From an uncultured delta proteobacterium (GTDB lineage: Bacteria > Desulfobacterota > Binatia > UBA9968): DNA of 64,000 nucleotides. The position numbers and the translations under genes were made by a program. The notes under the pieces are model-generated. The model was not told the origin of the DNA, made no database searches, and was given only the letters and a program-made list of their open reading frames with translations. Position 1 is the first letter of the stretch. Each line of letters opens with the position of its first letter. This document shows positions 3,889 to 47,022 of this stretch, one piece after another. The stretch is from positions 768,001 to 832,000 of the forward strand of contig CAVSHR010000004.1 of NCBI GenBank assembly GCA_963727625.1, read 5' to 3'.

Positions 3889-4815
3889 TTGCAATTCGCG
3901 CAACGAATAAAACCGCTCGGCCTCGGCGTCATGTTCGCGCTGGGTATGGTTTCGTTCGCCGCCTGCTCTTCGCGTTCTGTTTCACCTGAGACGCGCTATG
4001 CCCCGGCGGGCGACCTTCTCGACATCGTGAAAGATTTTCAACGCTTGGCCAGGGAGGACAGCTATCGTTTCCCGATTCCTAAGGATATCACCGGGATCAA
4101 CATCATGAAGGCCACGCTGGTGCGCTTGGACGATTACGAGCGCAAAAATCCCAATCAGTACAGCGACATCGTCCAGTTCAACAAAGCCTTGGCCCTGCAA
4201 CGGTTGAGAGAATACGATCAAGCTGCGGCGCTCTTCCGCAAGGTGGCGGACAATGGCGGCCGCCTCGGCGCCGAGGCGGCCAAGAACGCCGAGATTCTCG
4301 ATGATTTCCTGCGTATCTTCGATCGCGCCGTGCCGACCGACGACCCGTTCAAATACATCGCCGGTCTCGACCAGAAAGTCGCCGCCTGGAATCAGCTCAT
4401 TCAAAAACACAAGGGCACACCCTACGAGTTTCTTGCGCGCGAAGAAGAAGAACGGATCGACCGGGCCAAGGTCGCTTTCGTCGAGGCCAATCGCTACCGC
4501 CTGAAGGAAGGCAACCAGCTGACCATCGTCGGCTTCAGCCAGCTGGTCACCAAACATCAGCAAAGCAAGAATATTTACCGCTATCTCATCGACTTCGGCG
4601 ACTTTTACATGCGACTTGCAAATGAGTATGCATCTCAGTACGATCCCGAGGGATTAATCTTCAATTTCAAGCTTTTGGACCAGTTTGTCAAATCGGCGCT
4701 TAAGCTTTACTCCGAAGTCGCCCAGGTCGACGGCATATTGGAAAAAATCGAGGCCCAGGGAAAGATCGAAGCGGCCCGCGGTTTTTTGGAAAAAATGACG
4801 AGACTCAATCGATGA
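3889..4815 (+). CDS. Hypothetical helical/TPR-like lipoprotein
   Basis: Lipobox VSFAAC; helical repeats such as QFNKALALQRLREYDQAAALF; stop overlaps the next ATG. Confidence 0.7.
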   Translation: MQFAQRIKPLGLGVMFALGMVSFAACSSRSVSPETRYAPAGDLLDIVKDFQRLAREDSYRFPIPKDITGINIMKATLVRLDDYERKNPNQYSDIVQFNKALALQRLREYDQAAALFRKVADNGGRLGAEAAKNAEILDDFLRIFDRAVPTDDPFKYIAGLDQKVAAWNQLIQKHKGTPYEFLAREEEERIDRAKVAFVEANRYRLKEGNQLTIVGFSQLVTKHQQSKNIYRYLIDFGDFYMRLANEYASQYDPEGLIFNFKLLDQFVKSALKLYSEVAQVDGILEKIEAQGKIEAARGFLEKMTRLNR

Positions 4816-13833: not shown

Positions 13834-15117
13834 TCATGCCCTCAGCCTCGTGCTGTGAAACACACGGTTGTCCTGATCAATGAATTCCAACAGGGCGTGA
13901 TTGGGATCGGCTTTGGGGTCGATGGTGATCTTTGCGAAATTAAAATCTTCCGCCAGATAGTATTCAAAGCGCCGCGCTGATCCGTCGGTGATTCGATTGA
14001 GCGGCGCGCCTAAGGGCCCCGCGGTGATGTCCTTGAGCCCGCGGGACTTGGGAATTTTAGTGATCGCCGCGTAGTGCATATCCGCGCTGAGAAAATAAAC
14101 GCCGCGGATTTTGTTTTGATTGATGAAGCGCAGGATCTGCGCCCGCTCTTTGGGAAAACCGTCCCATCGATCGCTGCCGCCGCCGGCCATCGTCACCGAG
14201 GTGGCGATGAATTTGAAGGTCGCTGTGGAACTCGCAACGCGGTCGAAGAGCCACGCCTTTTGCGCCTCACCTAACATCGTGCCGCTCTTGAGATCGCGGT
14301 ACTGGCGCGTGTCGAGAATAAAAAGCTCCGCCGCCCGGCCCCAGCGAAACGAACGGTAAATTCGCCGCGGATCGCTCGCCGGACAGCGCACCGGCCAATA
14401 ATCGAGAAACGCTTTCCACCCGATGGGAGCCAAAGCGTCACCGGGCAAAAAATCATCTGCGACTTCGTGATCGTCCCAGACGACATAGAGGCCAGTGTTT
14501 TGCATACAGGCTTGCGTCGCATAGTCGTCACGGTTGACACGGTATTTGGCCCAGAACTCCGCTAACTGCCGCGCGCTGCCGTTTTTGTCGGCGTAGATCG
14601 TATCGCCCAGGTTCAGGAAAAAATCCGGCCGCTGCGCAGCCACGGCGCTCATGACGGTGAACGGTTTGTAGCTTTCGCGGGTGTCGCCGCTGAAGCAAAA
14701 CGTCACCTTCGCGGCATCGTCCGGATGCGGCGCGGTCACGAAGCTCCCGACCGGCCCCGGAAATTTGCCGCTGACCGCGGCGCGATAATAGTAGCGGCTC
14801 GCCGGCTTCAAACCACTGAGGGAAATTTTTACGGTGTAATCCGACGCCGAATCCACTGGAAACACCCGGGTGGAGGCATATTTGACGAGACGCGGATGCC
14901 CGCCGTATTGCAAGGCAACCCGGCTGCCGGCCTCGGCGCGCAGCCAGACCAGTGCGCTCGTGTCGGTCACATCGCCGGCGACACAGTAAAGCGACAACCC
15001 TGTGGCCGGATCGGGCGGAGTGAACACCGTGGCGCACCCGGATTGGCCCAAAAAAAACGGCGCGCCTAGACCGGCTGCCGCTACGGCTTTGAGAAATTGT
15101 CTGCGACGCATCGTCAT
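13834..15117 (-). CDS. phoD: PhoD-family alkaline phosphatase, Tat-exported (possible lipoprotein)
   Basis: RRRQFLK Tat motif, QSGC, GDTIYAD, WDDHE, LDTRQYR, DRWDGF, SADMH. Confidence 0.9.
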   Translation of the reverse strand: MTMRRRQFLKAVAAAGLGAPFFLGQSGCATVFTPPDPATGLSLYCVAGDVTDTSALVWLRAEAGSRVALQYGGHPRLVKYASTRVFPVDSASDYTVKISLSGLKPASRYYYRAAVSGKFPGPVGSFVTAPHPDDAAKVTFCFSGDTRESYKPFTVMSAVAAQRPDFFLNLGDTIYADKNGSARQLAEFWAKYRVNRDDYATQACMQNTGLYVVWDDHEVADDFLPGDALAPIGWKAFLDYWPVRCPASDPRRIYRSFRWGRAAELFILDTRQYRDLKSGTMLGEAQKAWLFDRVASSTATFKFIATSVTMAGGGSDRWDGFPKERAQILRFINQNKIRGVYFLSADMHYAAITKIPKSRGLKDITAGPLGAPLNRITDGSARRFEYYLAEDFNFAKITIDPKADPNHALLEFIDQDNRVFHSTRLRA

Positions 15118-15618
15118 TCAAACATAAAATTTATTCCAGAGGATCTCGCACAGCCAGCCGGCGATCAGGGGAAAGAGCAGGCTCACGGTCAGACGTACCG
15201 CGACAACCTTCGGACCCAAAAAGGGGATCTCCCACATGATGATGCGTTGCATGCCGAACAACGACCACGCCGTCAGGTACGCCACCAAGGGCCCGATACC
15301 GACCCCCATCTTGTAAAACGAAGCGATCACCGGGAAGTGAGTCATCGGTCCGCCCGGGGTGACACCGCCCAAGGTCATGCCGACGAGAAGACCCCGAAAG
15401 CCCGTCCCATGGCCCATCCATTCGACGATCAGTTCTTTGGGCACGATCGCTTGGAACAACCCCGCCAGCAAAAATGCCGCGATCATGCGCGGGGTGATTT
15501 CAAGAATCAACGAGCCGGTCGCGTTGAGCCCTTTTTGAGCGGCTTCCGGCGACTTATAGTAAACCGCGGCGAGCATGACCAGCGCCGCCGCCATCATGAC
15601 GACTGTCGATGTGTCCAT
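15118..15618 (-). CDS. Predicted permease (DUF318/ArsP-like, short form)
   Basis: Hydrophobic; TPGGP motif and YLTAWS; start MDTSTVV preceded by RBS aggag. Confidence 0.75.
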   Translation of the reverse strand: MDTSTVVMMAAALVMLAAVYYKSPEAAQKGLNATGSLILEITPRMIAAFLLAGLFQAIVPKELIVEWMGHGTGFRGLLVGMTLGGVTPGGPMTHFPVIASFYKMGVGIGPLVAYLTAWSLFGMQRIIMWEIPFLGPKVVAVRLTVSLLFPLIAGWLCEILWNKFYV

Positions 15619-15805
15619 GGATCTCCTGAAGATAAGATTGGTTAACTTTCGCGGGGGCATCGGATGTACTGCAGCGAACCGTGAGCGTAGATTTGAACTG
15701 TAAAGAGCGCCGGGTGAATTTGCAAACCGGCGGCTCAAGAGGCTCGTTTGACTTGCCCCGGACGCTATAGTTACCTGGAGGCGATCATTTTACGCGGAGG
15801 AATGA

Positions 15806-17089
15806 ATGGCTCTCGATCAGGAATTGGCAAATAAAGTCATCGATCAAATCGACCGCGACGAATTGGCTCGGCTCGGCTGCGATCTCACCGGCATCCCGAG
15901 CCCCACTGGCCAGGAAAAAGCGATCGGCGAATTCATTTTGAGCTGGTTCGAGTCCAACGGCATCAAAGCGGTCAGACAAGACGTCGAATTCGACCGGCCC
16001 AACGCCGTCGGGGTGGTCAAAGGCGACGGCACAGGGTTGAGCCTCGGCTTCAACGGCCATACGGATACGAGTTTCACCGGCACCGAGGAAGACCGCCGCA
16101 TGGTCGCCGACATGGAGCCCGAGTCGGAGCTCAAGGGAAAGATCGTCGGCGATAAAGTTCGAGGCCTCGGCATCTCCAACATGAAGGGCGGCGTCGCGGC
16201 GTTCATGATCGCCGGCAAGGCGCTCAAAAAATGCGGCGTGAAGTTGAAAGGCGACGTGGTTCTCGCCGCCGTGGTCGGCGAGATCTCGCGCACCCCCGTG
16301 GGCCCCTGGCAGACCAAGGAATATCGCGGCGAAGGCGCCGGCACGCGCCATCTGTTGACCCACGGCATGCATTCGGACTACGCGGTCTGCTGCGACGGCT
16401 CCGACATGAACATCGTCTGGACCCAGAACGGCGTCGTGCAGGTGAAGATTCAAACCTTCGGCAAGGCCGAGGCCGCCTGGGGCTCCAATCGCGAAACCCA
16501 TCCGATGGTAAAGATGAACGCCATCGTCAAAATGACCAAGATCATCGACGCCATCGAGCGCTGGGGCGCGGAGTTCGAAGCGAAATATGTTTACCAATCC
16601 CCCACCGGCCCGCTCTATCCCAAGGTCAACATCGGCGGCATCGAAGGCGGCGCGCCCTACCGGCCCAACTACTATCCCGGCGTCTGCTCGATCTACGTCG
16701 ACATTCGCATGCCGCCGCAAATCCGGCCGGTGCAGATCCAGCACGAGCTGGAAAAGAGGTTGAATGCGACCGGCCTCGAATACCAAATGGATATTTACAA
16801 ATCGTTGCTCGGCCACGAGGGCAAGAACGTCGAGCCGTTGGTCAAGTCGGCCGAAGAGGTTTTCCAGCATCTGTTCGGCGCCAATATCAAGCACGAAGCT
16901 CCCGACCGCGCCAGCATCTGGACGGACACCAACGTGTACAACGAGCTCGGCATCCCCGCGATCAAGATCGGCCCGCGCGGCCGCCGCATCGGCCCGCGCA
17001 ACGAGGAAATCGAGATCGAGACGATGGTCGACGCGGCGAAGCTCTACGCGCTCATGGCGCTCGATATCTGCACGAGGCCAAGAGCCTAG
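15806..17089 (+). CDS. M20/ArgE-DapE family metallohydrolase-like protein
   Basis: PSPTGQE, FNGHTDT, GLGISNMKGG, VNIGGIEGG, TD..GIPAIKIGP. Confidence 0.85.
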   Translation: MALDQELANKVIDQIDRDELARLGCDLTGIPSPTGQEKAIGEFILSWFESNGIKAVRQDVEFDRPNAVGVVKGDGTGLSLGFNGHTDTSFTGTEEDRRMVADMEPESELKGKIVGDKVRGLGISNMKGGVAAFMIAGKALKKCGVKLKGDVVLAAVVGEISRTPVGPWQTKEYRGEGAGTRHLLTHGMHSDYAVCCDGSDMNIVWTQNGVVQVKIQTFGKAEAAWGSNRETHPMVKMNAIVKMTKIIDAIERWGAEFEAKYVYQSPTGPLYPKVNIGGIEGGAPYRPNYYPGVCSIYVDIRMPPQIRPVQIQHELEKRLNATGLEYQMDIYKSLLGHEGKNVEPLVKSAEEVFQHLFGANIKHEAPDRASIWTDTNVYNELGIPAIKIGPRGRRIGPRNEEIEIETMVDAAKLYALMALDICTRPRA

Positions 17090-17144
17090 TAGTAAAGGAG
17101 TTCGCAGTCCGGCTGACCTCTTAGAATCTGGACGGCTAAAATAA
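17088..17144 (+). pseudogene. intI: Extreme 3' tail of an integron integrase
   Basis: Reads SSKGVRSPADLL, matching the typical IntI C-terminus GGxGVRSP(A/L)D; lies directly upstream of an attC array. Confidence 0.55.
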
Positions 17145-17300
17145 TACTATGCCGTCCCCATACGCAGCCTTCTGCAGCCGAGAAAGAGATGTGGAATGGG
17201 ATCGTAAGCGTATGACATATCGAGAAAATTGCTGCTGTCGCAAGAATCTAATCGAGCAGTGTTATACCGACCGGCATATTCATAGTTTGAGCATACTACT

Positions 17301-17337
17301 TTGACACGGCATAAATTTTGGCTATAATCTGGCCAGA
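17301..17337 (+). promoter_or_regulatory. Consensus sigma70 promoter with overlapping palindromic operator
   Basis: TTGACA-16nt-TATAAT (17301-17328); perfect palindrome TCTGGCCAGA at 17328-17337 abuts the toxin ATG. Confidence 0.85.
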
Positions 17338-17631
17338 ATGCGCTTTGAGATCATTTTGGCTCCGGAGGCGGTGGAAGATTTTCGCGCTTTGAAGGCCAAT
17401 GTTCGATCGACCGTCCGCGATGCTCTTGAAACGCATCTTCGGCACGAACCCATGAAATCGAGCCGGAGCCGGATCAAGCGGCTGCGAGGCCTGGCGCGAC
17501 CACAGTATCGACTTCGTATCGGTGAGGTTCGAATATTTTACGACGTATTAGCCGAGTCCGTTGAGGTCTTGGCTATCGTGCCCAAATCGGAGGCGGCAAT
17601 ATGGCGGGAGCAGTTCGGAAAGCCCGAATAA
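17338..17631 (+). CDS. RelE/ParE-family toxin
   Basis: IILAPEAVEDF, RIKRLRG..QYRLRIGEVRIFYDV; paired with the downstream antitoxin. Confidence 0.9.
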   Translation: MRFEIILAPEAVEDFRALKANVRSTVRDALETHLRHEPMKSSRSRIKRLRGLARPQYRLRIGEVRIFYDVLAESVEVLAIVPKSEAAIWREQFGKPE

Positions 17632-17873
17632 AAGAAGTCCCTTTATCTGAGATCAAAGACGATCTTTCACGATTTCTGCGTGAGGCGGAGAAGCAGGAGA
17701 TTGTCATAACTCGGCACGGAAAGGCTGCCGGTGTCTTGATCGGATTCGAGTCAGAGGACGACTGGTTTGACTATCGGCTTGAGAACGACTCGCGTTTCCT
17801 CGAGCGGGTCGAACGGGCTCGAAGAAGCTTAAAAGCCGGGCGGGGTATCCGGTTAGAAGATATGCCGAAGTAA
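17601..17873 (+). CDS. Phd/YefM-family antitoxin
   Basis: EVPLSEIKDDLSRFL..IVITRHGKAAGVLI. Confidence 0.9.
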   Translation: MAGAVRKARIKEVPLSEIKDDLSRFLREAEKQEIVITRHGKAAGVLIGFESEDDWFDYRLENDSRFLERVERARRSLKAGRGIRLEDMPK

Positions 17874-17880
17874 GCGAGTG

Positions 17881-17935
17881 TTCTAACCGGCGGCTTGATA
17901 AAGCCGCTTCGCGCTTCTTAGCCTTCGCGCTGCTC
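17881..17935 (+). repeat. attC site, degenerate R'
   Basis: ttctaac-5nt-gcttga ... ttagcc-5nt-gctgctc (GTT mutated); arms resemble the attCs at 21303 and 23864. Confidence 0.6.
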
Positions 17936-18101
17936 GTTCCCGTGGCTAAAAGTCTTGCCAAACAACAGCGTATTGACGACCGATCTTTGGCGTAGTCGTC
18001 CAGCGAGCGCAGACAAACCGCTTAGGGACTTGCTTCCGCACGTTCCTAGGCTCCGCGCTATACTTGAGAACGCTCGGCGCGGTCAGGTGCGCGAAATTTC
18101 T

Positions 18102-18160
18102 GGCTAACCATCGGGTGGAAATGTCGCGCCAAACCGTGCCTCTCACCCAAAACGTTCGGC
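18102..18160 (+). repeat. attC site
   Basis: R'' ggctaac, arms gggtgga/tcaccc, R' gttcggc. Confidence 0.85.
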
Positions 18161-18222
18161 CGCACATCGCCCGAGTGACACAACCTCGCTTTCGTTACGG
18201 AGTTCAGAACAAAGGAGAATTT

Positions 18223-18798
18223 ATGTCACGCATTCGCCCTACAAAGTTCGCCCATGTTGTTTACCGCACGCGCCGTTTCGAGCAGATGGTGCATTGGTAT
18301 GAGACCGTGTTCGACGCCAAGGTCCAGTACCAGAACCCCGTGCTGGCATTCTTGACCTACGACGACGAACACCACCGCATTGCGTTGATCAACCTGTCGG
18401 TGCTTCAGCCGGACGGTACCGAAACCGAGCGTCATGGCTTGATCGGTGTCGACCACGTGGCGTACACGTATGCGTCTTTGAACGACCTGTTCGAAAATTA
18501 TGTGCAGCTCAAGGAGAAGGGAATCCGGCCGTACTGGTGTGTCCATCACGGTATCACGGTGTCGATGTACTACGCCGATCCTGACGGCAATCAGATGGAA
18601 TTTCAGATCGATAGCTATGGGTCGAGTGAAGAGGCCAATGCCTTTATCAACGGGCATTTCACGGTCAATCCCGTTGGCGTTGAGTATGACCCCGAAGATT
18701 GGCTGGTCCGGCTGCGGGCCGGAACACCGGTGTCGGACTTTCTGGTGCGCCGGGTTCACGAACCGGTGTCCCCGGTACGGGGATCGATCGCAGGTTAG
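18223..18798 (+). CDS. VOC/glyoxalase-family cassette protein
   Basis: RBS aaggag; FAHVV, DDEHHRIA, GVDHVAY, HGITVSMYYADPDGNQMEFQ; cassette ends gttcggc...gccgaac are exact reverse complements. Confidence 0.9.
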   Translation: MSRIRPTKFAHVVYRTRRFEQMVHWYETVFDAKVQYQNPVLAFLTYDDEHHRIALINLSVLQPDGTETERHGLIGVDHVAYTYASLNDLFENYVQLKEKGIRPYWCVHHGITVSMYYADPDGNQMEFQIDSYGSSEEANAFINGHFTVNPVGVEYDPEDWLVRLRAGTPVSDFLVRRVHEPVSPVRGSIAG

Positions 18799-18916
18799 TC
18801 GCGGCGAGTTGACGGCGGCTGCTCAATCGGGCTGGTTGCGTTGGTCCACGCTGCCGTTGTCGCCGTTTCATCCGCCTGAGACTCTGCGCTGTAAAGGTTT
18901 CGATTCCGAAGGCCCA

Positions 18917-19010
18917 GCCGAACAAGCGAATCAACCGGAGCGCACGCAGCTTAGTCCGTCTGCCACTGCATGGTAACTTCGCGCGCGCCCGATTATCCTT
19001 GTCGTTACAC
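18917..19010 (+). repeat. attC site
   Basis: R'' gccgaac, gaatcaaccggagcgcacgc ... gcgcgcgcccgattatcc, R' gttacac; next ATG 4 nt later. Confidence 0.85.
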
Positions 19011-19014
19011 CTCC

Positions 19015-19446
19015 ATGAAAAGTTACAAAATAGCGTTTTTGACAAGTGTAATTTTGATGTCCCTGCCAAGTGCGATGCTGGTTGTGGTTGGCGTAGTGAA
19101 TCTCAGCGCTTCGCACATCCTTTTTTGGGCAGGGATGCTGTTTCTGCCTTGGTTGGTGTATAGGAATCTGGTTCGGGAAGCTAAGCGGTCTTTTGGCGTT
19201 AGTTTTCTGCTCATTAACTTGCTTTGGTGGCCGTTGCTGGCGAGAACCGTGCAACGAGTAATTTTTGCCGTAGAAAATGGGGGCATAGAACGAGCTGACG
19301 GATACGGCTCGCCGCTCGCGTTCCTGATCGGCATGATAGGTGAACAAGCTTATTTCCTTCCAATGACGGTTACATTATTATTCGGTTGCAGGGTGCTTTT
19401 GACATCTAACAACCGACTCGATGAGCCGCAAAAACCGCACGCTTGA
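19015..19446 (+). CDS. Hypothetical membrane cassette protein
   Basis: ATG right after the attC; about 4 hydrophobic segments; reads into an attC-like atctaac at 19404. Confidence 0.7.
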   Translation: MKSYKIAFLTSVILMSLPSAMLVVVGVVNLSASHILFWAGMLFLPWLVYRNLVREAKRSFGVSFLLINLLWWPLLARTVQRVIFAVENGGIERADGYGSPLAFLIGMIGEQAYFLPMTVTLLFGCRVLLTSNNRLDEPQKPHA

Positions 19447-19669
19447 GTTGATTCATCGTACTGCAAAGAGCAAATCGAACCGCACGATCCCGTACCAAGA
19501 CTGAAGTAAAGCCGTCAAACCTCGATCCCGCGCTCGCCGAATCGCGCAATATCATGAAGCTCTATGCCGCGATGCTCTCAAACCAGATTAATCCAACCAT
19601 GAGTATGAACGTAAGATCGACTCGCCGCGATTATTCTGTTCGCAACTTCAGTCTTAACCACTCGACGGC

Positions 19670-20056
19670 ATGAAACGAAATCGCAAGGCACTTGGGTTGT
19701 TGATGATCGGCGTTTTTCTTGGCATGGCGATCTGGTTTTTCTCGCCCTGGCTTACCGGGAAGGTCGAACCCTGGGACTCGGACGCGCCGATTTGGTCTCT
19801 GTCTTGGTTGGTGGTCGCGCTTTTCGGCGGCGTCACGGGCCATGTTTGCGGCGTGTGCTTGCCGATCGGTTACGCGCTGGGCCGGATGCTGGTCACAATC
19901 CGGTCTGTCTTCTTTGGGCCGTTTGGAGCATTGGGCTGGCTGTTCATAGCAGGCTATGCGATGGCTGCTGTAATTGTCACGTTGGCTCTTGTCGGTGCAA
20001 CGACAACGCTAAAATGGGCTTGGCGCACGCGGAGCGGCAAGGTCGTTGGCGTGTAA
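19670..20056 (+). CDS. Hypothetical membrane protein
   Basis: About 4 TM segments; SPWLTGKVEPWD. Confidence 0.7.
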   Translation: MKRNRKALGLLMIGVFLGMAIWFFSPWLTGKVEPWDSDAPIWSLSWLVVALFGGVTGHVCGVCLPIGYALGRMLVTIRSVFFGPFGALGWLFIAGYAMAAVIVTLALVGATTTLKWAWRTRSGKVVGV

Positions 20057-20211
20057 TTCCTCCATCGAACCAAGGTTTTAAAATATTCAACCCCCGAGTA
20101 GAATGGCCGACAAATCATTGTTATCGTAAGTGCTCAACCACCCGTACCAAACCGACCAAAATGTTCTAAATTAGTTCCGATTTTTTGTCGACCAACTATT
20201 AAGGAGGACTC

Positions 20212-20664
20212 ATGTTTCGTTCCCTGCCCTTTCTATTAGCGTCGCTCTTAACAGTATAATCAGCGGCCTTTGGCGCCGATGGTCTGATCTCGGTCAAGAG
20301 CCCCTTTCCAGTGAAAGAAACGATGAACCGGTTCGAGCAATTAGCCAAGAAACGCGGTCTCAATATCTTCGCGCGTGTCGACCACGCAGCCGGCGCGGCA
20401 AAGGTGGGCAAGACGTTGCGGCCCACGGAGGTAATCATCTTCGGTAATCCGCAAGGCGGCACGCCATTCATGGAATGCGCGCAGTCCGTCGGCATCGATC
20501 TGCCGCTCAAGGCGCTTGTCTGGGAGGACGCTCAGGGTCAGGTGTGGCTCGGCTACAACGACCCGGCGTTCCTGGCTAAGCGTCATGGCGCGCCTCAGTG
20601 TCCTGCGGTGGGCGGTTTGACCAAGGCGTTGGCCGGTCTTGCTAAGGCGACGATTGCTCGATGA
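20212..20664 (+). pseudogene. DUF302-family protein with a nonsense codon in the signal peptide
   Basis: RBS aaggagg + ATG 20212, in frame with FARVDHAAGA..IFGNP..GTP..IDLPLK; in-frame TAA at 20257-20259. Confidence 0.8.
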
Positions 20665-20698
20665 GCCGAGAACGCAGGCTACATTACTTCGAGGGATT

Positions 20699-20840
20699 CG
20701 CACGGGTAGGGCCTGCAGGGAGCGAGCAATTCGTAGAGAGGATCGAAAGGTTAACGGGCCGTCAGCTGGGGATGCGAAAAGCAGGGCGTCCACTTAAGCG
20801 CACCTCGTAAGAAATTGGAATTGTGTCCCCGGAATACCCG
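20699..20840 (+). mobile_element. 3' remnant of a REP-associated Y1 (RAYT-like) transposase
   Basis: RTGR/(+1 shift)PAGSEQFVERIERLTGRQLGMRKAGRP*, followed by tgtgtccccggaat. Confidence 0.6.
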
Positions 20841-20845
20841 TGTAG

Positions 20846-21301
20846 ATGATGAAAGCACACATCTTGCTTGTCCAGTTGGCTTTGGTCGCCTGTTTGCCGG
20901 CATATGTAGCTTCCGCGCAACCGGACTCGTGCGAGTACTTTTTCTCGGCTTTGAGATCAGTTCCACACGAAAAGTTAACCCGCATTGAAGGAGCGCACAA
21001 GTCTCTTTGGGATGGAAAGAAGTATACTGGATGCGAGGTTAAGTTCGTAACCAACGACAAATTGCTTTCTGGCAGAAGGGTCCCAGATTTTGATCCTATT
21101 AAAGACTCAGAGATGCATCGTAAGGGCTGGCGGATGAACAACTCGTTTGTGGCCGATGGACCAGGTACAGGTGTATTTGGAATCGAAAAAGAGTCTGTTC
21201 TATGCCTTGTCAGGCATGAGCAACCAGCCCATCTGGATGATCACGGCAATATTATGCAAAGCGAGACGCTGAGTGTTACGGTTCAATGTAGGTACAGGTA
21301 A
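20846..21301 (+). CDS. Exported hypothetical cassette protein
   Basis: Signal peptide, 4 Cys in the mature part, stop directly before an attC. Confidence 0.75.
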   Translation: MMKAHILLVQLALVACLPAYVASAQPDSCEYFFSALRSVPHEKLTRIEGAHKSLWDGKKYTGCEVKFVTNDKLLSGRRVPDFDPIKDSEMHRKGWRMNNSFVADGPGTGVFGIEKESVLCLVRHEQPAHLDDHGNIMQSETLSVTVQCRYR

Positions 21302-21302
21302 A

Positions 21303-21382
21303 GCATAACCCTTGGCTTGAGACAGACCCTCGTCCCGCCACTTGATGGGCGGGGACCCCGCTTCTCAGCCTGAACGTTAGAT
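21303..21382 (+). repeat. attC site
   Basis: R'' gcataac, ggcttgaga...tctcagcc, inner stem gtcccgcc/ggcggggac, R' gttagat. Confidence 0.9.
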
Positions 21383-21440
21383 ATCGAGGGTTCTCAGCGT
21401 CGTGGTTGGTAGGTAGCAAAACTAGAACCGGAGGGAAGGA

Positions 21441-21638
21441 ATGTCTTCTCGCGCCTATCTGGTCATCTCTGGTGTCATCTTCGGAATTGTCGCAGTTCTT
21501 CATTTGCTTCGCCTTGTCAACGGCTGGGCGTTAGAGCTCGGTCCGTGGTCCGCGCCAATATGGCTGTCTTGGTTGGGCGCGGTGGTTCCGGCTCTTCTCT
21601 GCATCTGGGCCTTTCGTTTGGCAAGACAATCGCTTTGA
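21441..21638 (+). CDS. Small 2-TM membrane protein
   Basis: RBS; IFGIVAVLHLLRL..PIWLSW. Confidence 0.7.
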   Translation: MSSRAYLVISGVIFGIVAVLHLLRLVNGWALELGPWSAPIWLSWLGAVVPALLCIWAFRLARQSL

Positions 21639-21752
21639 GAATGGATTGCGGGTGAGGTACGATTAGCCCGTTTCGCGGGCGCTTGAGCCCGGAAATTACG
21701 GCGGTGTGGGCCGCTGATTAAGCTAACGTTAGAACTCTACCGCCTGTATGCC

Positions 21753-22223
21753 ATGATCTCGATCGACATTCCCGGCTTCCGCAAGCTTGAGCTGGCACAC
21801 CTCGTATCTGACTACAACGGCACACTGGCTCTCGACGGCAAACTGTTGCCTGGCGTTGCGGAGGCACTGTCCGACCTCGCACCCAAACTTCACATTCACG
21901 TCATCACAGCGGACACCTTCGGCTTTGCCAAGGCACAACTCGCAGCGCTTCCTGTTAAGCTGAAAATCATACCGGTCGAATCGCAAGCCGAGGCTAAACT
22001 GCAGTTTTTGTCCGAATTGGGAGCCGATACGGTCGTTGCCATCGGCAATGGCCGCAACGATCGCAAAATGTTGAAGGCCGCCGCCCTGGGCATCGCCCTC
22101 GTTCAAACCGAAGGCGGCGCGGCAGAAACTCTCGCAAGCGCCGATGTCGCCAGCACGAGCATCCTCGACGCGCTGGAGCTTCTGCGCAATCCAAAGCGCC
22201 TCGTCGCCACGCTGAGATCATGA
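21753..22223 (+). CDS. HAD-superfamily hydrolase (soluble P-type ATPase-like)
   Basis: SDYNGTLA, ITADTFG, AIGNGRND; preceded by R'-like gttagaa at 21728. Confidence 0.85.
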   Translation: MISIDIPGFRKLELAHLVSDYNGTLALDGKLLPGVAEALSDLAPKLHIHVITADTFGFAKAQLAALPVKLKIIPVESQAEAKLQFLSELGADTVVAIGNGRNDRKMLKAAALGIALVQTEGGAAETLASADVASTSILDALELLRNPKRLVATLRS

Positions 22224-22496
22224 AATGGTAAGTCTCAGCCGCTTGATAGACGAGAAAGATCCGAATTGTCTCAGACGCCTGTGATAGCGGTTGAAACTCT
22301 TCGCTGCTCGAAAATGTGGTTTGCCCACGTGGTGATGTCGCTTGACCGACCTGCCTATTTAGGAATATAGGTTGCAAAACCTCCGGAGACATGGTCGAGG
22401 AAAACGCCCATGGCAAATCCCACCGAAAGACTTTCTTCTCACCTCTCCAGCCGTGCCGGCACCGGAGCAATTCCCGCGCTCAGCGTTCCGGTATGG

Positions 22497-22586
22497 ACGG
22501 CGCAAGAACTGCTTGGGCACCGCCATGTGGACACCACGATGATATACACGCATATTCTAAACCGCGGTGGCAAAGGGGTTCAATGA
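22497..22586 (+). pseudogene. intI: Integron integrase catalytic C-terminal fragment
   Basis: Reads [28 protein letters not shown]: tyrosine recombinase box II plus the IntI-type NRGG tail; absent from the supplied ORF track. Confidence 0.85.
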
Positions 22587-23029
22587 AGAAACTCCTCATC
22601 TTGGCGCTCGCCGCAATTGGCGCGGCCACAATTCTCGGTGGCGTAGCGTTTTTCGTTTTTGGCCCGGGGTTTCTGTATTTTGGTATGGCTGGTGGGTCCG
22701 ACTACAAAATTGAGAAGACCGTGCCTTCACCGAGCGGCGCGTATGTAGCGACGCTTTACACTGGCATGGGCGGCGGTGCGGCTGGATCGTGCTCTCAAGT
22801 TATCTCGATCAATACCGTCTCCGAACCACTTTCTTTAGAAGTGGAGAAGAGTTCGGGGCAATACCAGGTATTTCGCGCCAGTTGCAGCGCTAAGGTCACC
22901 TTTCAATGGCTCTCGAATTCAGCCCTTCAGATCGGCTTCGCTGGAACAGACCAAGGCGGTCTGTCCCTTTACTTAAAGCCAATGGATTACTCCGGTCAAG
23001 TCACCTTCGAGTATAGCCTTGGCGCCTAA
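22583..23029 (+). CDS. Hypothetical membrane-anchored cassette protein
   Basis: Start MKKLLIL at 22583; [14 protein letters not shown]; stop lies inside the attC R''. Confidence 0.75.
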
Positions 23030-23149
23030 CCAATCGCTCCACCGTGCCGGTTCAGCGCTAGTCAGCGCGCGCGTCCGTGCGTACTCGACAGTTTGCGCCG
23101 GCCGCGCGCCTCGAACGTTGCCACCGGCCGGTGAGCTCAATCGTTCGCC
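23024..23149 (+). repeat. attC site
   Basis: R'' gcctaac, gctccaccgtgccgg...ccggccggtgagc, R' gttcgcc. Confidence 0.9.
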
Positions 23150-23155
23150 CGCTAA

Positions 23156-23860
23156 ATGGACACGCTAGACACCATAGTTTTAGCATTCCAGGTTGTGTTC
23201 TACGGGATTGGTTTAGCTCTTCTGATCGGAATTGTTCTGGCATGGCGAAGACGTTCGCGAGTTGTGTTCATCAGCCTTATAGTCGGAATAGTTTTCTACT
23301 ATGCCGGCGGACTCGAAATATCGGCTCTGCCTGGATCCACTCAGTACCAGCATCTTCGGATGGCGTGGATGCTGGTGGGTCGTCCCTTCCTACTCGGTTC
23401 ACCTGTGTTCGCTTTCGACTCTGAACGTGCGTTCAATGGAGACGGATATTCGATTTATCGGTACAATCTTCCAGCGTCGATCGCGGAAGGCTTGCAGCGG
23501 CCGCCCGAAACGTTTTTCACGACGCTTCCCAAGAAGCCTTCGTACCGTTCGGAGTGGAAAACGAAATATTGGCGTCGTACACCCGTCGATCAGAGTGAGC
23601 AGGAGTTCGTGCAGTTTGCAGCGCCCATGGGAAATTTTTCCAATGGGATGAGAAGTGAACCGGGGTTTGTGGAGCTTGGTGATGCGGCGAGAAGAGAAGC
23701 CGAATTTTTGCAACAGCTTCTTCGCGAAGAGGATAACTACTACGCTTATTTTTATTTTATGGCGGGTCCGTGGAACGGTATTACTTGGCCCGGGGATATC
23801 GATTTTTTCGTTTTAAATCCACGGAGGCGAGTGCTCTACGTCATTAACAACAACACCTGA
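23156..23860 (+). CDS. Hypothetical membrane cassette protein
   Basis: Two N-terminal TMs; bounded by attC sites with near-complementary cores. Confidence 0.75.
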   Translation: MDTLDTIVLAFQVVFYGIGLALLIGIVLAWRRRSRVVFISLIVGIVFYYAGGLEISALPGSTQYQHLRMAWMLVGRPFLLGSPVFAFDSERAFNGDGYSIYRYNLPASIAEGLQRPPETFFTTLPKKPSYRSEWKTKYWRRTPVDQSEQEFVQFAAPMGNFSNGMRSEPGFVELGDAARREAEFLQQLLREEDNYYAYFYFMAGPWNGITWPGDIDFFVLNPRRRVLYVINNNT

Positions 23861-23863
23861 ACG

Positions 23864-23944
23864 GGCTAACAACCGGCTTGAGAAGGGTCTTCGACCCGCT
23901 CGGTACACTCGCTGGTCTCGCCCTCTCAGCCTGAATCGTTCGCC
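23864..23944 (+). repeat. attC site
   Basis: R'' ggctaac, ggcttgaga...tctcagcc, R' gttcgcc. Confidence 0.9.
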
Positions 23945-24000
23945 CGACCTCAGATGGTCGTGCGAACGGGTCGGCGGAATTAATACGAGAGGAGAAATAC

Positions 24001-24369
24001 ATGATAGAACACACCCTCGACGCTGAGAATTCCATTCTGTATCTTCGACCAAAGTCCGCGCTCGCGCGAGACGACTTCGTGCAACTCGCGAAAGCGGTTG
24101 ACCCATACATTGAGAAAACCGGGGGACTCGACGGTCTAATCATTGAGGCTACTACGTTTCCCGGATGGGAGAGTCTTGGAGCAATGGCGGCCCACCTCCG
24201 CTTCGTGCGAGATCATCACAAGCGTATCAAGAAGATTGGCCTCGTAACCGATTCTGCCTTGGGAAATGTCGCAGAACATCTGGCATCACACTTTGTGTCA
24301 GCCGAGATCAGGCATTTTTCTGCGGGGGAGATTGAGGCTGCAAAGCAATGGATCATGGACCGCAGTTGA
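24001..24369 (+). CDS. STAS/SEC14 (SpoIIAA-like) domain protein
   Basis: FPGWESLGAM..HLRFVRDHHKRIKKIGLVTD..EIRHF..AKQWI. Confidence 0.85.
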   Translation: MIEHTLDAENSILYLRPKSALARDDFVQLAKAVDPYIEKTGGLDGLIIEATTFPGWESLGAMAAHLRFVRDHHKRIKKIGLVTDSALGNVAEHLASHFVSAEIRHFSAGEIEAAKQWIMDRS

Positions 24370-24372
24370 TTC

Positions 24373-24442
24373 GCCTAACACGACGCTCCACCCGCCTGCT
24401 CACCGCTACGCGGTTCGCAGCGGGTAAGCTTAGTCGCTACGC
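24373..24442 (+). repeat. Terminal attC site, R' mutated
   Basis: R'' gcctaac, gctccacccgc...gcgggtaagc, 6 nt, gctacgc (GCT instead of GTT). Confidence 0.75.
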
Positions 24443-24465
24443 TTGGACCGGATGTCCCAACGAAC

Positions 24466-25725
24466 TCAGCAAGCCTTCCGCAGTGCACGTGGTCGGGAAA
24501 TTTTGCTCGACAAGATAACTGGAACCACCCCATCGATATACATAAAAAACCGCCCTACGGCTTGATGATCAGCGACGACTGCTCTTCTTCCTTCTTCTGC
24601 CTTTTCCTGCGACATGAAGTAAGCGAAGCTCTTCTGCACAAGGCCGGTGAGAAAAGACACGTCGAGCGGGCCGGGGTCGCCTTCGCCGACTTGCAAACCG
24701 ACGGCAAGGGAGAGCTTCGCCTGCTCCGGCCGCTGGGTTTCGAAGAAATAGAGCGCCATGTCTTCCATGCGCCGCTTGAAAGCCTTGCCGTTGTCCCCGC
24801 TGCAAAGCGCTTTAACCGCTTCGCGCACGATGGCGGATAGGCGCTCTTCTTTTTGCAGCGGATTGAGCACCAGCCGGCTGGTCTGCGCTTCTTGGATCTG
24901 CGGCAAATAGGCTTGGACCCAGTCGTCGGTCAAAATCCAGTAGCGCAGCTCGGGCTCGTCGAGCAGGCGGCGCGACAGTTCCCGCCAGGCGCCGTCGCGC
25001 GCTTCTTCCGCGGCTAACTTTTCATAGATCGGGTGGCTGACCTCTTTGGGCTTGCCGGTGGCGATGACCGAGCGAATCTCGTGAAAGTTTTCCAGGCCGC
25101 TCTGGCCGCGCGCCTTGGCGTGCTCGTAGCCCTCGTACATTATTTGATCGGCGTATTCCCAGGGAATCGAGATCATGCTGACTTCATGTTGCCGCTTGAT
25201 CTCGTCGGCCATATTGCGCAGCTCTTTGCGCCGCATCTGCATGCCGCCGACGCGCAGCAATCCTTCACGGTCATGCAGCATCGCTTGAATGACTCGTAAT
25301 CCATGGCTCGGCTGCGCCCTGGCGATCCAGATCAGCCGCCCGCCGCCGCCGTCCACCGCCGACATATAGGCTTCGATCTCCGGGCCATGGCTAAATAGCG
25401 GCGCGGCGGATGTCGCTTCACCCGCCGCAGGCTGGGGCACCGCGAAGCCGCGCTGCGCCAATTTAAAAAGTGCGCGCTTGATTTCTTTCTTGATCTCCTT
25501 GCCGGCCATCTGCCGCTCGATCTCGCCGAGCGCCTGCACCGCTGCCGCATCAGCGATTTTACCCAATGAAAATACCACCGCCAGATCCGTTTCCCGGCCC
25601 TTGCCCAACTGTTCCCGCAGTCTAGCGACGAGGGTCGGGGAGTCGGCAGCGAAGTCCACGCCTGCTTTGGCGAGCTCGTCCATGCCGCGGCGGATCGTCT
25701 CGTCGATATTTTTCTTCTTGGCCAA
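24466..25725 (-). CDS. Hypothetical protein with HEAT-like N-terminus; probable frameshift near the C-terminus
   Basis: 419-aa ORF; an alternative frame ends EEEQSSLIIKP* at 24555. Confidence 0.7.
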   Translation of the reverse strand: MAKKKNIDETIRRGMDELAKAGVDFAADSPTLVARLREQLGKGRETDLAVVFSLGKIADAAAVQALGEIERQMAGKEIKKEIKRALFKLAQRGFAVPQPAAGEATSAAPLFSHGPEIEAYMSAVDGGGGRLIWIARAQPSHGLRVIQAMLHDREGLLRVGGMQMRRKELRNMADEIKRQHEVSMISIPWEYADQIMYEGYEHAKARGQSGLENFHEIRSVIATGKPKEVSHPIYEKLAAEEARDGAWRELSRRLLDEPELRYWILTDDWVQAYLPQIQEAQTSRLVLNPLQKEERLSAIVREAVKALCSGDNGKAFKRRMEDMALYFFETQRPEQAKLSLAVGLQVGEGDPGPLDVSFLTGLVQKSFAYFMSQEKAEEGRRAVVADHQAVGRFFMYIDGVVPVILSSKISRPRALRKAC

Positions 25726-25903
25726 ACTCTCGTATCCTATGATTCACGAACGGAACAAACTTAGACTCTTAACTGTAACACTAGCTGAATACTGCTTCCG
25801 AACGTCAATCGAGTCGCCTAGATCGCGCGCTAGGCTCGGGATGACATACACGAAGCGAGGCAGCTTGCTTCAAGTCGATTTGAAATCAAATTTACGCCGG
25901 CTC

Positions 25904-26845
25904 CTACAGTCTCGACAGATCCGTGATCTTCCCCTGCCTGCCGGCGAAGGCGAAGTTCGGCCACTCTTCCACCTGCGCGTCGCGATAGTTGTCGCGATAC
26001 CATTGGGCGACTTCACCGGCGGTGGCGAACCAGACCTTGCCATGCTTCTTGGCGTAGCGAATAAACTCGCGCAACAGCAGCGCGCGAAACGGCCGGCCAC
26101 CGACGAACGGATGGTTGCCCCACATCATGAACTTCGGATCGGTGGCGCCTTCTTCGTAAAGACAATCGAAGCAATCCTTCCACATCTGCAACAGATCGCG
26201 CGGCGTGCGCCCGGCGCGCTGGTAGCTGGAATAGTCGTTCAAGTCCTGGAAGTATGCGAGCACCGTCAGCTCTTTACGCTTAACTTTTAAAGTATAGGGC
26301 GTTTCTTGATGCTGTGGGTCCATCCAGTACCTATAACCCAGCTCCAAAATAATCTCAGGGGTCACGGCGCTCGGCGCCACGCCGGTCGAAAGATAACCCA
26401 CCGGCGCCTTACCGATGACTTTTTTCACCGCGGCGACGGTTTTTTGCAGATCTTTTTTCTCGGTCGCGCGCCTTTTCATGTAGCTGTAATCATGAATCCA
26501 GGTTTCCGTGCCGATCTCGTGCCCATATTCGGCGGCTTCTTTAAAAATCTCCGGATAATTTTGCACGGTGATGCCGGTGGGGAAAAAGCTGGTACGGATC
26601 TTCTCTTTTTCGAAGACTTCGAGCATGCGATAAATGCCCACCCGCTCGCCGAATTCACGGTCAGTGATGATCGCCAGATTTTTCTTGGTGACTGCGTTTC
26701 TTGGGAAGCTCCGCCGATTTTCCTGTTGCAGCGTATTCGGCCCGCCGAGATCCTCCGGCCAAGTTTCGAAAGCCACGCAGGGCGTGATCGCGATGCGCGC
26801 GCCATTGGGCCATTTGATCGGTTTTCGCTTCGGTCTGACTTTCAT
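25904..26845 (-). CDS. Polysaccharide deacetylase family (PuuE-like)
   Basis: WPNGARIA, EFGERVGIYR, GHEIG, HPFVGGRPFR, VWFAT. Confidence 0.85.
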   Translation of the reverse strand: MKVRPKRKPIKWPNGARIAITPCVAFETWPEDLGGPNTLQQENRRSFPRNAVTKKNLAIITDREFGERVGIYRMLEVFEKEKIRTSFFPTGITVQNYPEIFKEAAEYGHEIGTETWIHDYSYMKRRATEKKDLQKTVAAVKKVIGKAPVGYLSTGVAPSAVTPEIILELGYRYWMDPQHQETPYTLKVKRKELTVLAYFQDLNDYSSYQRAGRTPRDLLQMWKDCFDCLYEEGATDPKFMMWGNHPFVGGRPFRALLLREFIRYAKKHGKVWFATAGEVAQWYRDNYRDAQVEEWPNFAFAGRQGKITDLSRL

Positions 26846-27100
26846 ACTGCCTCCTTCGGCTGGTGAATTTTTCTAGTCATGCCATGTTTCGATGGTCTTG
26901 CCAACCGACTTCCGCCATTCGCGGCGAACTTCTCGGATTCACCGGATAGGTTCCCTCCGGGGCCCTAGACCGCAATTTTGAACCTTAACATTCCAATGTT
27001 TTTTCGCTGATTTGCATTGTCTACGCCGGTGCCGTGCTATTGACTTGCGCGGGGATGCCAGCTAATTCATTTAATTGATTTTGAACGAGGAGGCTGAGCC

Positions 27101-46153: not shown

Positions 46154-46797
46154 TTTGCTGCTCCCGTCTGAATCTCAAACTATGCGTTTGTGTTAAACAG
46201 CGCTCTTTCTCGGCTCCGACTCTACCGTGATTCGGTATAGTCCAAGCCGATTGCGCGCGCAAGGTTTGGTTGTCGAGAGCACAAGGTCAATATCATTTCG
46301 GAGTTGAAACAAATTTGAATCAAACACTTCATGTTTTGAGCGCGCCAATGCGACGACCATGATCGACGGCAAATTACGACCGCTCTGAAACCCACGGCGC
46401 GTCCAGCTCACCGTTAGCAGGTCGGCAGACGTGCAACAATTTGGGAGGCATTCACTGCCTCGAATTTAGCGCTTCAATATTTTGACGACCTATGGAAGTT
46501 TCTATGGGCGCGGTAAAATTGCCAAATGGCTTGAACAGAACGAAGCCCTTGAGCGGCTTGAGCTTTTTGAGCTTAAATCTTAGACGCGCGCCCTCACAGG
46601 CAACGATTAAATGAGATTTTTTCAGCCGCACTCCGGTGGAAACTTTTTCTCTACCCTTTGGTCTCTTTACTCTGGGATTGAATCTTCCATGCCGGCCGGA
46701 TTGAAATCAATTTTGGCTTCTCACTGCTCATGCCTGGGGCTATCTGCAATATCGCCTGCGCGGCCGGTATTGTGGACGACGGACTGGCGCCGAATCA

Positions 46798-47022
46798 GTC
46801 CCGGCCTACCGAGGTTACGCCGTGGCTCACAATACCCGAAGCGAATCTGAGATTGATGGGATCTTTGCCCGGCTACAGGATTACGGTGCGAACATCGTCA
46901 AGCAACCGCAAAAAATCCTCTGGGGCGGTTATTCCGGAAATTTTTCCGATCTCGACAGCCATATAGGAGAGATCGCTTACAATCCGTTTTGGATCATCCG
47001 GACGGATGGCCGCGTGCGATAA
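46798..47022 (+). pseudogene. VOC-family 3' fragment; direct repeat of 38446-38615
   Basis: Near-identical sequence gtcccggcctaccgagg...catatag, continuing into EIAYNPFW. Confidence 0.85.

Follow-up and report, generated by a model that had tools for sequence, protein, structure and literature searches.

The original description of the Treponema denticola-type integron is reportedly that of Coleman et al. 2004. An integron layout in which the integrase gene, intI, is co-oriented with its cassettes is described for Treponema (PMC3607928). Clusters of attC sites without an integron integrase (CALINs) have intI pseudogenes near 15 of 279 members in the survey of Cury et al. 2016 (PMC4889954), where it is suggested that such clusters may originate through loss of intI, through rearrangement or through insertion at secondary sites. 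Recombination at secondary, attG sites is treated in a preprint (10.1101/2022.09.11.507474), which gives the consensus as GWT, cut after the G, and the minimal site as 9+9 nt. Finally, short left-arm remnants of a recombination site (8-12 nt) are kept before G/TT, the slash marking the crossover, and travel with cassettes (PMC12901181).

The locus analysed here is an integron island, extending from position 17090 to around 24450 of the window (the whole 64,000-nucleotide stretch of DNA under analysis), with an M20 peptidase gene on its left and a conserved chromosomal gene on its right (Table 1). In several relatives (G013, G014, G004) the right-flank gene directly follows the M20 gene, giving an empty site, and the natural M20 stop codon, TAG at 17087-17089, has the same position in nine relatives. 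As the original prediction had it, the island contains two cassette arrays, A and B, each headed by a piece of intI that shares its strand with the cassettes and attC sites. It was also correct to call this unlike the usual divergent layout, but co-orientation is an already known atypical type and not novel here. In integrons of this Binatia-like family, intI and the cassettes share a strand and attI lies downstream of the intI stop codon: besides the window, the Treponema-type layout is seen in the genomes G005 and G014 and in this genome's own complete integron, where the attC matches have the same strand as intI and follow its 3' end. The differences from the T. denticola type lie in the Binatia-like soil host and in the island's two wrecked integrase genes, with platforms apparently in tandem.

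Table 1. Features of the integron island and its flanks (window coordinates; R1 is the attC covariance model)
Feature	Position	Strand	Evidence
M20 peptidase gene, chromosomal left flank	15806-17089	+	Pfam PF01546/PF07687
intI 3' remnant (tail), codons ~340-355, KGVRSPADLLESGRLK and stop	17092-17144	+	BLAST to G005 intI, translation, alignment
Probable attI, conserved region 3' of intI stop	17145-17287	+	Homology with G005
Sigma-70 consensus (TTGACA, 16 nt, TATAAT), inside first cassette, upstream of parE	17301-17328	+	12/12 matches, consensus match alone
First cassette: ParE-type toxin (17338-17631), Phd/YefM antitoxin (17601-17873)	17338-17873	+	Pfam PF05016, PF02604
Weak attC candidate	17881-17935	+	R1, 12.4 bits, E 0.18
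attC site	18102-18160	+	R1, 41.4 bits, E 2e-10 (R1 seed); GGCTAAC ... GTTCGGC inverted-repeat structure
Rest of array A	18223-22223	+	ORFs, Pfam
Glyoxalase/VOC ORF, array A	18223-18798	+	
Two membrane ORFs, array A	19015-19446, 19670-20056	+	
DUF302 ORF, array A	20311-20664	+	
Secreted ORF, array A	20846-21301	+	
attC site	21303-21382	+	R1, 76.8 bits (R1 seed)
Small ORF, array A	21441-21638	+	
HAD-like hydrolase ORF, array A	21753-22223	+	
Conserved region 5' of intI with TTGACC hexamer; presumed intI promoter and 5' UTR	22316-22409	+	Three-way alignment with two G005 copies, BLAST
Internally deleted intI, 58-codon ORF (P0001)	22410-22586	+	Translation, BLASTP, TIGR02249
First ORF of array B, membrane/secreted protein, no known family	22583-23029	+	
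attC site, long form, found by hand	23024-23149	+	Stem scan (best score) and regex scan; not found by R1
Cassette ORF, no family	23156-23860	+	
attC site	23864-23944	+	R1, 89.1 bits (R1 seed)
Cassette ORF, SpoIIAA-like	24001-24369	+	Pfam PF11964
Possible last attC, weak; GCCTAAC start, degenerate 3' end	24374-24440	+	Sequence reading; not found by R1
Right-flank chromosomal gene	24466-25725	-	

The arrays themselves are of the usual kind, with attC sites on one strand separated by short promoterless ORFs. Three attC sites match R1 at E < 1e-9, all on the + strand; all three are seeds of that model, so that a match such as that of 18102-18160 comes by construction, and two more sites were added by hand. 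The arrays of relatives hold near-identical attC copies, and the ORFs are typical cassette cargo. Copies of the site at 21303-21382, some 85-90% identical, recur in G029 and G027; that at 23864-23944 has copies (84-91% identical) in five relatives, besides a single one among the cassettes of the genome's own complete integron. Since the former is the one confident attC within 18223-22223, several cassette boundaries of array A are left without definition.

The first intI remnant, termed the tail, begins 2 nt past the M20 stop codon. Translation of 17088-17144 gives SSKGVRSPADLLESGRLK followed by a stop, which includes the KGVRSPAD of the IntI C-terminal block ...TTMIYTHVLNRGGxGVxSPxD, a block also present in the surveyed intI 3' ends of the family; the GTT of its GV codons lies at 17100-17102. 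The tail by itself is too short to score against the integrase profile TIGR02249. Together with the DNA downstream, it matches the 3' end of the G005 intI at 76% identity over 199 nt (BLAST, E 1.5e-34), so that the nucleotide similarity to intI ends, on which the original prediction depended, is present. In G005 one intact intI of 355 codons (452 bits against a TIGR02249 cut-off of 265) directly follows the same M20 gene on the same strand, with the two parts that are separate in the island contiguous. The key comparisons rest on this unpublished genome; locus L162, which is arranged alike, probably represents the same record and would then not be independent. About 140 nt past the tail are also conserved with G005, the homology ending at CATAG/TT, after which the sequences read TGAGC in the window and AGGCG in G005. 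This region is probably attI, with a predicted crossover at the G/TT between 17285 and 17286. A match to this probable attI was found in G005 only, among 30 other genomes of the genus, and the first cassette has an independent counterpart in G012, where the match starts at 17298.

The second remnant is more elaborate. The 58-codon ORF joins intI codons 1 to about 27, in frame, to codons ~314-343 (the head, 22494-22581), with BLASTP aligning it to residues 1-37 and 314-344 of the G005 IntI. The head is 82% identical to the G005 gene over 79 nt and matches TIGR02249 profile positions 280-309 (E 9e-8 in a genome scan); at 36.4 bits the ORF lies below the membership threshold of 265. The stretch 22497-22586, originally predicted to be a second intI 3' fragment, reads through as the 29-residue end of this ORF. 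Both fragments are genuine remnants of integron-integrases, and not members of the family themselves, but the head is no lone 3' piece, as the N-terminal codons and the upstream region are kept. The catalytic residues of tyrosine recombinases are two Arg, the His and the Tyr. With codons ~28-313 deleted, the 58-codon ORF retains the part of the C-terminal block that includes the Tyr segment (MIYTH) and lacks a complete catalytic domain. The GV codons of the head are 22575-22580 and intI sequence ends at their GTT (22578-22580) or at GTTC (to 22581), 2-5 nt before array B's first ORF begins.

The island resembles a CALIN in having arrays accompanied by recognisable intI pseudogene pieces with no working intI in cis: remnants alone adjoin the arrays, and the nearest complete intI, the only one in this genome (467 bits with TIGR02249), is 397 kb away. 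It differs in having two complementary-looking pieces in one island, and in that a surviving piece is the 3' end adjoining attI, as a result of the co-oriented layout. Decay of intI of such a kind is common in the family. Around 18-22 of the family matches listed are confined to the last 45-70 codons of intI. Other internally deleted copies exist as well, such as that of another unpublished genome (G076:C302), in which a single open frame passes from codons 32-135 straight to 288-350.

How did the two pieces arise? On the coordinates of the G005 locus the head match ends at L012 4004, and that of the tail starts, exactly at its first nucleotide, at L012 3993. The head thus does not stop where the tail begins, at the GV, as was originally thought; instead 12 nt are present twice, as GCAAAGGGGTTC in the head (22570-22581) and GTAAAGGAGTTC in the tail (17092-17103), with two mismatches, the copy in the tail being identical to G005. 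This argues for two gene copies, though two differences in 12 nt make it a thin argument. Furthermore, over some 125 nt compared, the region upstream of the head resembles a second G005 copy, which has a different genomic neighbourhood on contig C17, more closely than it does the G005 copy beside the M20 gene. Tandem integrons also exist in the same genus: G014:C15 has two intact intI ORFs 17 kb apart on one strand and, between them on that strand, nine attC matches (E <= 0.07). The original suggestion of two fused co-oriented integrons fits these data best. The remnants most likely derive from two gene copies and are most likely the wreckage of two tandem integrons, not the product of a new recombination mechanism.

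In detail, we lean towards two tandem platforms each decayed by deletion, the complementarity of the pieces being approximate and probably coincidental. Platform 1 would be the orthologue of the intact integron that G005 carries at this locus. Its upstream region and nearly all of intI would have gone in a deletion that began at the M20 stop codon and reached about codon 340, so that what survives is the final 16 codons of intI with attI and array A. Platform 2, which lies where array A ends, would have kept its upstream region and start codon while losing codons ~28-313 in frame. A further loss, starting with the GTT of the GV codons and stopping 2-5 nt short of the first array B ORF, would have taken its tail and attI as well. 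Either duplication or a second insertion could have given rise to the two intI copies; how the deletions came about, and in which order, is inferred. Several observations tell against two platforms. By our own estimate, which assumes uniform breakpoints, there is a chance of ~2% that independent deletions in a platform of ~1.2 kb would end no more than 12 nt apart. Both remnants are of one intI subfamily, sharing the MANPTER N-terminus and having G005 as best match, and the head breaks exactly at GTT, the triplet cut by integron integrases. A tail or attI left by platform 2 was also looked for after array B, and neither was found.

Since both remnants fall in one subfamily, it is possible, if rather unlikely, that the integrase used the GTT of the GV codons as a secondary, attG-like site and so split a single integron, and that the present order is a permuted single platform. 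If this GTT recombined with the terminal attC of array A, then tail, attI and array A would be excised as a giant cassette, leaving the head, G/TT and array B; the circle would then re-enter beside the M20 stop codon. Equivalently, a whole circle of intI plus cassettes would have been opened at this GTT, as was originally proposed. The remnants are indeed almost exactly complementary, and the head ends at G/TT (or GTTC) with an intact cassette ORF beginning 2-5 nt later. As in attG recombination, the junction at GTT puts a cassette ORF next to non-att DNA. According to the preprint, integron integrases do insert cassettes at GWT sites in genomes, with 9+9 nt as the minimal site; exactly 9 nt are retained to the left of the tail's G/TT. 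Another family locus, L049, has its break 4-5 nt ahead of this GTT.

A crossover at G/TT, however, leaves no overlap, yet 12 nt are duplicated, and to the left of its GTT the tail has 9 nt of intI and not of target sequence. The published left-arm remnants (PMC12901181) come from attI1 or attI2 of clinical mobile integrons, whereas the 9-nt left arm in the island is integrase coding sequence. The first bases of the cassette (TTCAAT) pair poorly with the R'' box of its own attC (GCCTAAC), unlike those of the next two cassettes. Distant homologues of the first array B ORF, from metagenomes (36-38% identity, in attC arrays), have a leader of ~40 nt; no homologue was found in 89 other family genomes searched. 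The reciprocal junction, attC-G/TT-tail, is absent after array B, where a search for a tail or an attI belonging to platform 2 found none, the similarity at 24416 being no better than that of shuffled sequence. The site would also differ from the reported attG sites in lying inside the integrase's own gene; it is unlike attI beyond the GTT, and the right-arm motif CRGM at positions 6-9 is unmatched in register.

Nor does the breakpoint recur: none of the other genes surveyed, in 78 intI 3' ends of the family or the 150 class-level matches listed, is cut at the GV codon. In the family, 74 of the 78 match to codon 348 or beyond and another, L052, is a frameshift still holding the natural end, so that the true 3' truncations are L049 and, on one contig, L053 and L054 (codon 332/333). 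Among the class-level matches listed, 146 of the 150 extend at least to position 93 of 100, and no match has its end at 86-90. The proposal that the intI 3' end contains a recombination site carried along with the arrays survives in a trivial sense, 3' remnants staying beside arrays because attI lies downstream of the intI stop codon in this layout, and not as a recurrent GV breakpoint.

It is also very improbable that the permuted order is an artefact, a wrong join between strains or repeats in a metagenome-assembled genome. The assembly has 15 contigs and an estimated contamination of 6.3%; at most 9% of the stretch's sampled words occur in any public run, and no independent contig from those runs covers 22415-23200, which includes the junction of head and cassette (22578-22583). 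Small contigs nevertheless bridge the M20-tail junction (run X4, a 294-nt contig with 2 differences), tail, attI and first cassette (X3, 17090-17340, 0 differences) and the HAD gene, upstream region and intI start (X2, 22202-22414), and two of the junctions are not assembly artefacts. Moreover, the 12 nt with two mismatches shared by the breakpoints are too short to mislead an assembler, and neither fragment has another copy in the genome. Chance likeness of the tail to an IntI C-terminus, conceivable for just 14-16 residues that alone fall below every family threshold, is refuted by the 199-nt G005 match starting exactly at the tail, by the intact gene at the same locus there and by a six-frame motif scan of the genome, in which the tail and the complete intI are the 2 integrase-like hits among 9.

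On the favoured reading of two tandem decayed integrons, both platforms are dead, neither remnant being able to encode an active recombinase. The island cassettes could nevertheless be movable in trans by the complete IntI encoded 397 kb away. The region at 22316-22409 is the presumed intI promoter, though a simple promoter scan called none there. The 58-codon ORF ends in ATGA, its TGA stop (22584-22586) overlapping the start codon of the first array B ORF with AAAGGGG just upstream, so that the old intI promoter may now drive array B.

The forward-strand stretch 17088-17144 translates as SSKGVRSPADLLESGRLK followed by a stop, and 22497-22586 of the same strand as 29 residues of the intI C-terminal region; jointly these translations form the conserved C-terminal block of integron integrases. 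We call the intI pieces the tail (17092-17144) and the head (22494-22581). In a profile scan of the whole genome, positions 280-309 of TIGR02249 (NCBIfam) align with the head (E 9e-8). The contig also carries the genome's one complete intI, at a distance of 397 kb (468 bits against a TIGR02249 cut-off of 265), whose 3' end aligns with both head and tail at the nucleotide level. That alignment, with a similar one to the intI of relative G005, bears out the original prediction that the 17088 fragment is an intI end. Neither a second copy of head or tail (blastn, whole genome) nor a further integrase-like orphan tail (six-frame motif scan, whole genome) was found.

When 15000-27000 was searched against the DNA of 40 relatives, 17090 to about 24450 proved to be an insertion between the M20 peptidase gene and a conserved opposite-strand gene, which are neighbours in G013, G014 and G004. 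In G005, an unpublished genome on which all statements about G005 rest, an intact 355-codon intI (P0002; TIGR02249, 452 bits) follows M20 on the same strand. The head matches it at 82% over 79 nt, ending at position 4004 of the G005 locus (L012), and the tail plus downstream DNA matches at 76% over 199 nt from position 3993; both match one intI gene there, within which head and tail are contiguous. They had been predicted to be complementary, meeting at the C-terminal GV codons, whose GTT lies at 17100-17102 in the tail and 22578-22580 in the head. Both are genuine intI pieces, but they do not abut: in G005 coordinates they overlap by 12 nt, GCAAAGGGGTTC (22570-22581) against GTAAAGGAGTTC (17092-17103), with two mismatches, and G005 is identical to the tail's copy.

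Beside the tail, M20 ends at its natural stop codon, whose position nine relatives share, and intI sequence begins 2 nt past it. Homology to G005 extends about 140 nt beyond the intI stop (17142-17144) and ends exactly at CATAG|TT (G = 17285), beyond which the window reads TTTGAGC and G005 TTAGGCG. Because of this break we read the intervening DNA as a putative attI with crossover G|TT. The first cassette of array A, which follows, is a ParE/Phd toxin-antitoxin pair; the match to an independent copy in G012 begins at 17298. A perfect sigma-70 consensus (TTGACA, 16 nt, TATAAT) lies inside this cassette, 10 nt upstream of the first ParE/Phd gene.

The head, predicted to be a 3' fragment, is indeed intI 3' sequence but forms the terminal part of a 58-codon ORF retaining N-terminal codons. 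The first 27 or so codons (MANPTER...) match the N-terminus of G005 IntI and the last 31 correspond to its residues 314-344, so about 283 internal codons have been deleted in frame. Some 95 nt upstream of the ORF, including a TTGACC hexamer, are conserved with two G005 copies; when 22224-22290 was aligned with the M20-intI spacer of G005, identity was near the MAFFT level for unrelated DNA, and the alignment was discarded. The intI sequence ends at the GV-codon GTT or at GTTC, the next C being ambiguous, and the frame continues CAA TGA, its stop overlapping the ATG (22583) of a 148-codon ORF, the first of array B. This ORF has a full-length N-terminus relative to its only known homologues, which are distant and metagenomic: a metagenome scan gave only three distant loci (36-50% identity), and the 89 other family genomes gave no homologue to place the cassette's 5' boundary. 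An intI with an in-frame internal deletion, codons 32-135 joined to 288-350 in a 188-codon open frame, is also seen in the unpublished genome G076 (C302:237-734) and resembles the 58-codon remnant; retention of both gene ends may be favoured in co-oriented integrons.

Features of the locus, in window positions
Feature	Position	Strand	Basis
M20 peptidase gene	15806-17089		left flank
Tail, intI 3' remnant	17092-17144	+	nucleotide alignment
Putative attI	17145-17287		end of G005 homology
Sigma-70 consensus	17301-17328		motif
attC	18102-18160	+	R1 model, confident; seed of model
DUF302 cassette	20213-20664
attC	21303-21382	+	R1 model, confident; seed of model
58-codon ORF	22410-22586	+	ends in head
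First array-B ORF	22583-23029		148 codons
attC candidate, long	23024-23149	+	found by hand; absent from R1 matches
attC	23864-23944	+	R1 model, confident; seed of model
attC candidate	24374-24440	+	found by hand

This raises the question of whether one integron platform or two lie behind the remnants. On balance we think it somewhat probable that the remnants come from two platforms in tandem, both worn down by ordinary deletions, so that the suggestion of two fused co-oriented integrons has become the favoured explanation. The mismatched overlap argues for it, as does the head's upstream region, which resembles the M20-locus copy of G005 less closely than it does a second G005 copy. That second copy (G005:C17:1-1591, L134), comprising the region and a start codon at a contig end, lies beside a thiamine-pyrophosphate enzyme gene; the 85% identical orthologue in the window's genome (G000:C2:71839-76200, L196) is without adjacent integron sequence; sister species therefore differ in where these integron platforms sit. 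G014, which belongs to the same genus, carries a pair of intact intI ORFs (C15:183000-202999, L161) that share a strand and are separated by 17 kb, with nine attC matches (E <= 0.07) between them on the intI strand; an intact tandem co-oriented pair thus exists in the genus.

That a single platform was split at the GV-codon GTT we regard as unlikely, although the near-complementarity of head and tail would arise by chance in only about 2% of cases, as estimated for independent uniform deletion ends, both belong to the same intI subfamily, and the break falls at GTT. According to the preprint 10.1101/2022.09.11.507474, integron integrases use GWT sites in the genome for cassette insertion, the minimal site being 9+9 nt; exactly 9 nt are kept left of the tail's GTT. 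Those 9 nt, however, are intI sequence rather than target, a G|TT crossover leaves no overlap, the reciprocal junction is absent after array B, and pairing of the first array-B cassette's initial bases with the cassette's attC is poor. The proposal of a permuted circle opened at this GTT draws likewise on the near-complementarity and the GTT break, but conflicts with the overlap and the lack of a reciprocal junction. A second tail picked out by eye after array B (24416-24486, GTTCGCAG...CTTAG...TGGACCGG) was rejected, its local alignment score of 10 being no higher than the shuffle mean (10.1), with 610/1000 shuffles as good.

We doubt still more that the GV-codon GTT, some 40 nt short of the intI stop, really serves these co-oriented integrases as an attG-like secondary site, at which cutting would make intI tail, attI and array a giant excisable cassette, re-insertable elsewhere; the tail does keep exactly the 9-nt left arm required by the minimal site, and the nearest parallel, along with attG insertion, is the delta-attI cassettes of clinical integrons (PMC12901181). 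If such a site existed, attI and array could move as an acquisition module and arrays be permuted; an integrase cutting its own gene and mobilising attI with the entire array would open a new array-moving route, which the evidence does not favour. A non-exhaustive literature search turned up no published case in which a cassette is joined within the 3' end of intI itself.

The expectation of a recurrent breakpoint at the GV codon largely failed in two surveys. P0002 was searched against 90 genomes of the family and the best 150 of about 500 matches were examined; 79 among the matches listed had at least 60% identity and reached codon 330. We took 76, omitting G005:C279 and the genome's own gene, both added as L012 and L001 (n=78), and G074:C303, at a contig end. 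The intI match extends to codon 348 or beyond in 74 of the 78 3' ends, and none is cut at the GV-codon GTT itself. As to the rest, L052, from unpublished G076, has a frameshift and retains the natural intI end; L053 and L054, two inverted copies on one contig, are both broken after the catalytic-Tyr codon (332/333); and L049 (G051:C362:10300-11200) is broken 4-5 nt before the GTT, the deletion taking the tail and most of attI. At class level, codons 256-355 were searched in 401 genomes, detecting tails of at least about 14 codons: among the best 150 of 1,236 matches, 146 extend at least as far as position 93 of 100, four stop at 70-84 and none at 86-90. The L049 break is joined about 15 nt before an attI-like ...TTAATAG|TTAGGC. 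The inverted copies (G056:C1:42285-42461 and 45987-46928) lie 3.5 kb apart and share a similar continuation starting TATGCGCAG, which may reflect inversion or a common inserted element.

The assembled order was compared with public sequencing runs, in which the highest share of the stretch's sampled words was 9%, so that none holds it whole, and no joints on the stretch were reported from their contigs. Small contigs of three runs bridge M20 and tail (X4, 16859-17152, 2 differences), tail, attI and first cassette (X3, 17090-17340, 0 differences), and the end of the HAD-like gene, the upstream region and the intI start (X2, 22202-22414). No such contig covers 22415-23200, and the junction of head and cassette is therefore without independent support.

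Near-identical copies of the attC sites found with R1, our attC covariance model, occur in relatives' arrays. The model is narrow (effective sequence number 2.6) and missed the long candidate and any degenerate sites, constrained folding gave mostly noise, and stem-scoring and regex scans recovered the clearest sites only, so most cassette boundaries in 18800-21300 and 21640-22316 are undefined. Between the HAD-like gene and the intI-upstream region (22224-22316) no attC was found, folds being no better than shuffles (z -0.85, -1.4) and R1 giving no match. The remnants do lie on the cassette strand, as predicted, but this is no oddity: all attC matches of the genome's complete integron share the strand of intI and lie beyond its 3' end, and co-orientation is thus the rule here. 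Such a layout has been described for Treponema (PMC3607928).

The observation is real and tidy, and best explained by the decay of tandem integrons. The locus is of two known kinds, a co-oriented chromosomal integron region and an array that has decayed into something like a CALIN, its intI pseudogenes resembling those described near CALINs in PMC4889954. Presumably no integrase is made in cis; the complete genomic IntI, 75% identical to the G005 enzyme, could act in trans on attC sites and perhaps on array A's surviving attI, array B having none. Judged from sequence, the upstream region, open 58-codon frame, AAAGGGG before the cassette ATG and ATGA overlap would let the old intI promoter express the first array-B cassette. 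The locus is mainly a worked example of intI pointing to its cassettes: because the intI 3' end then adjoins attI, integrase-less arrays keep a recognisable 3' stub, usable for finding attI and dating integrase loss. Binatia-like soil bacteria have many co-oriented integrons, often several per genome, with tandem pairs among them.

The DUF302 cassette has an apparent ATG and signal-peptide-like start at about 20213 with an in-frame TAA near 20258, its long ORF resuming only at GTG 20311. Either pseudogenisation or a sequencing error may account for the interruption.

The site after M20 varies among relatives, being empty in some and differently filled in others. In a scan of 34 M20 loci, one genome per species, intI follows M20 only in L162, which is not independent of G005, since it is probably the same record as G005:C279. 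Homology of the right flank to empty-site relatives, sought for the island's right edge, was no better than shuffles. G006, G010 and G019 have different inserts, and in G017 (C46:297612-305452, L125) a 2.5-kb insert bordered by duplications of the M20 3' end (188 nt) and of a 3' piece of the right-flank gene (365 nt) looks like Campbell-type integration of a circle with a junction copy. The window's HAD-like gene has a homologue (74.5% nt identity) in G006 (C330:1-1100, L126); this homologue lies two genes after M20, comes after a SnoaL-like ORF and is cut by the contig end, so that the HAD-like gene may be part of the locus rather than an ordinary cassette.
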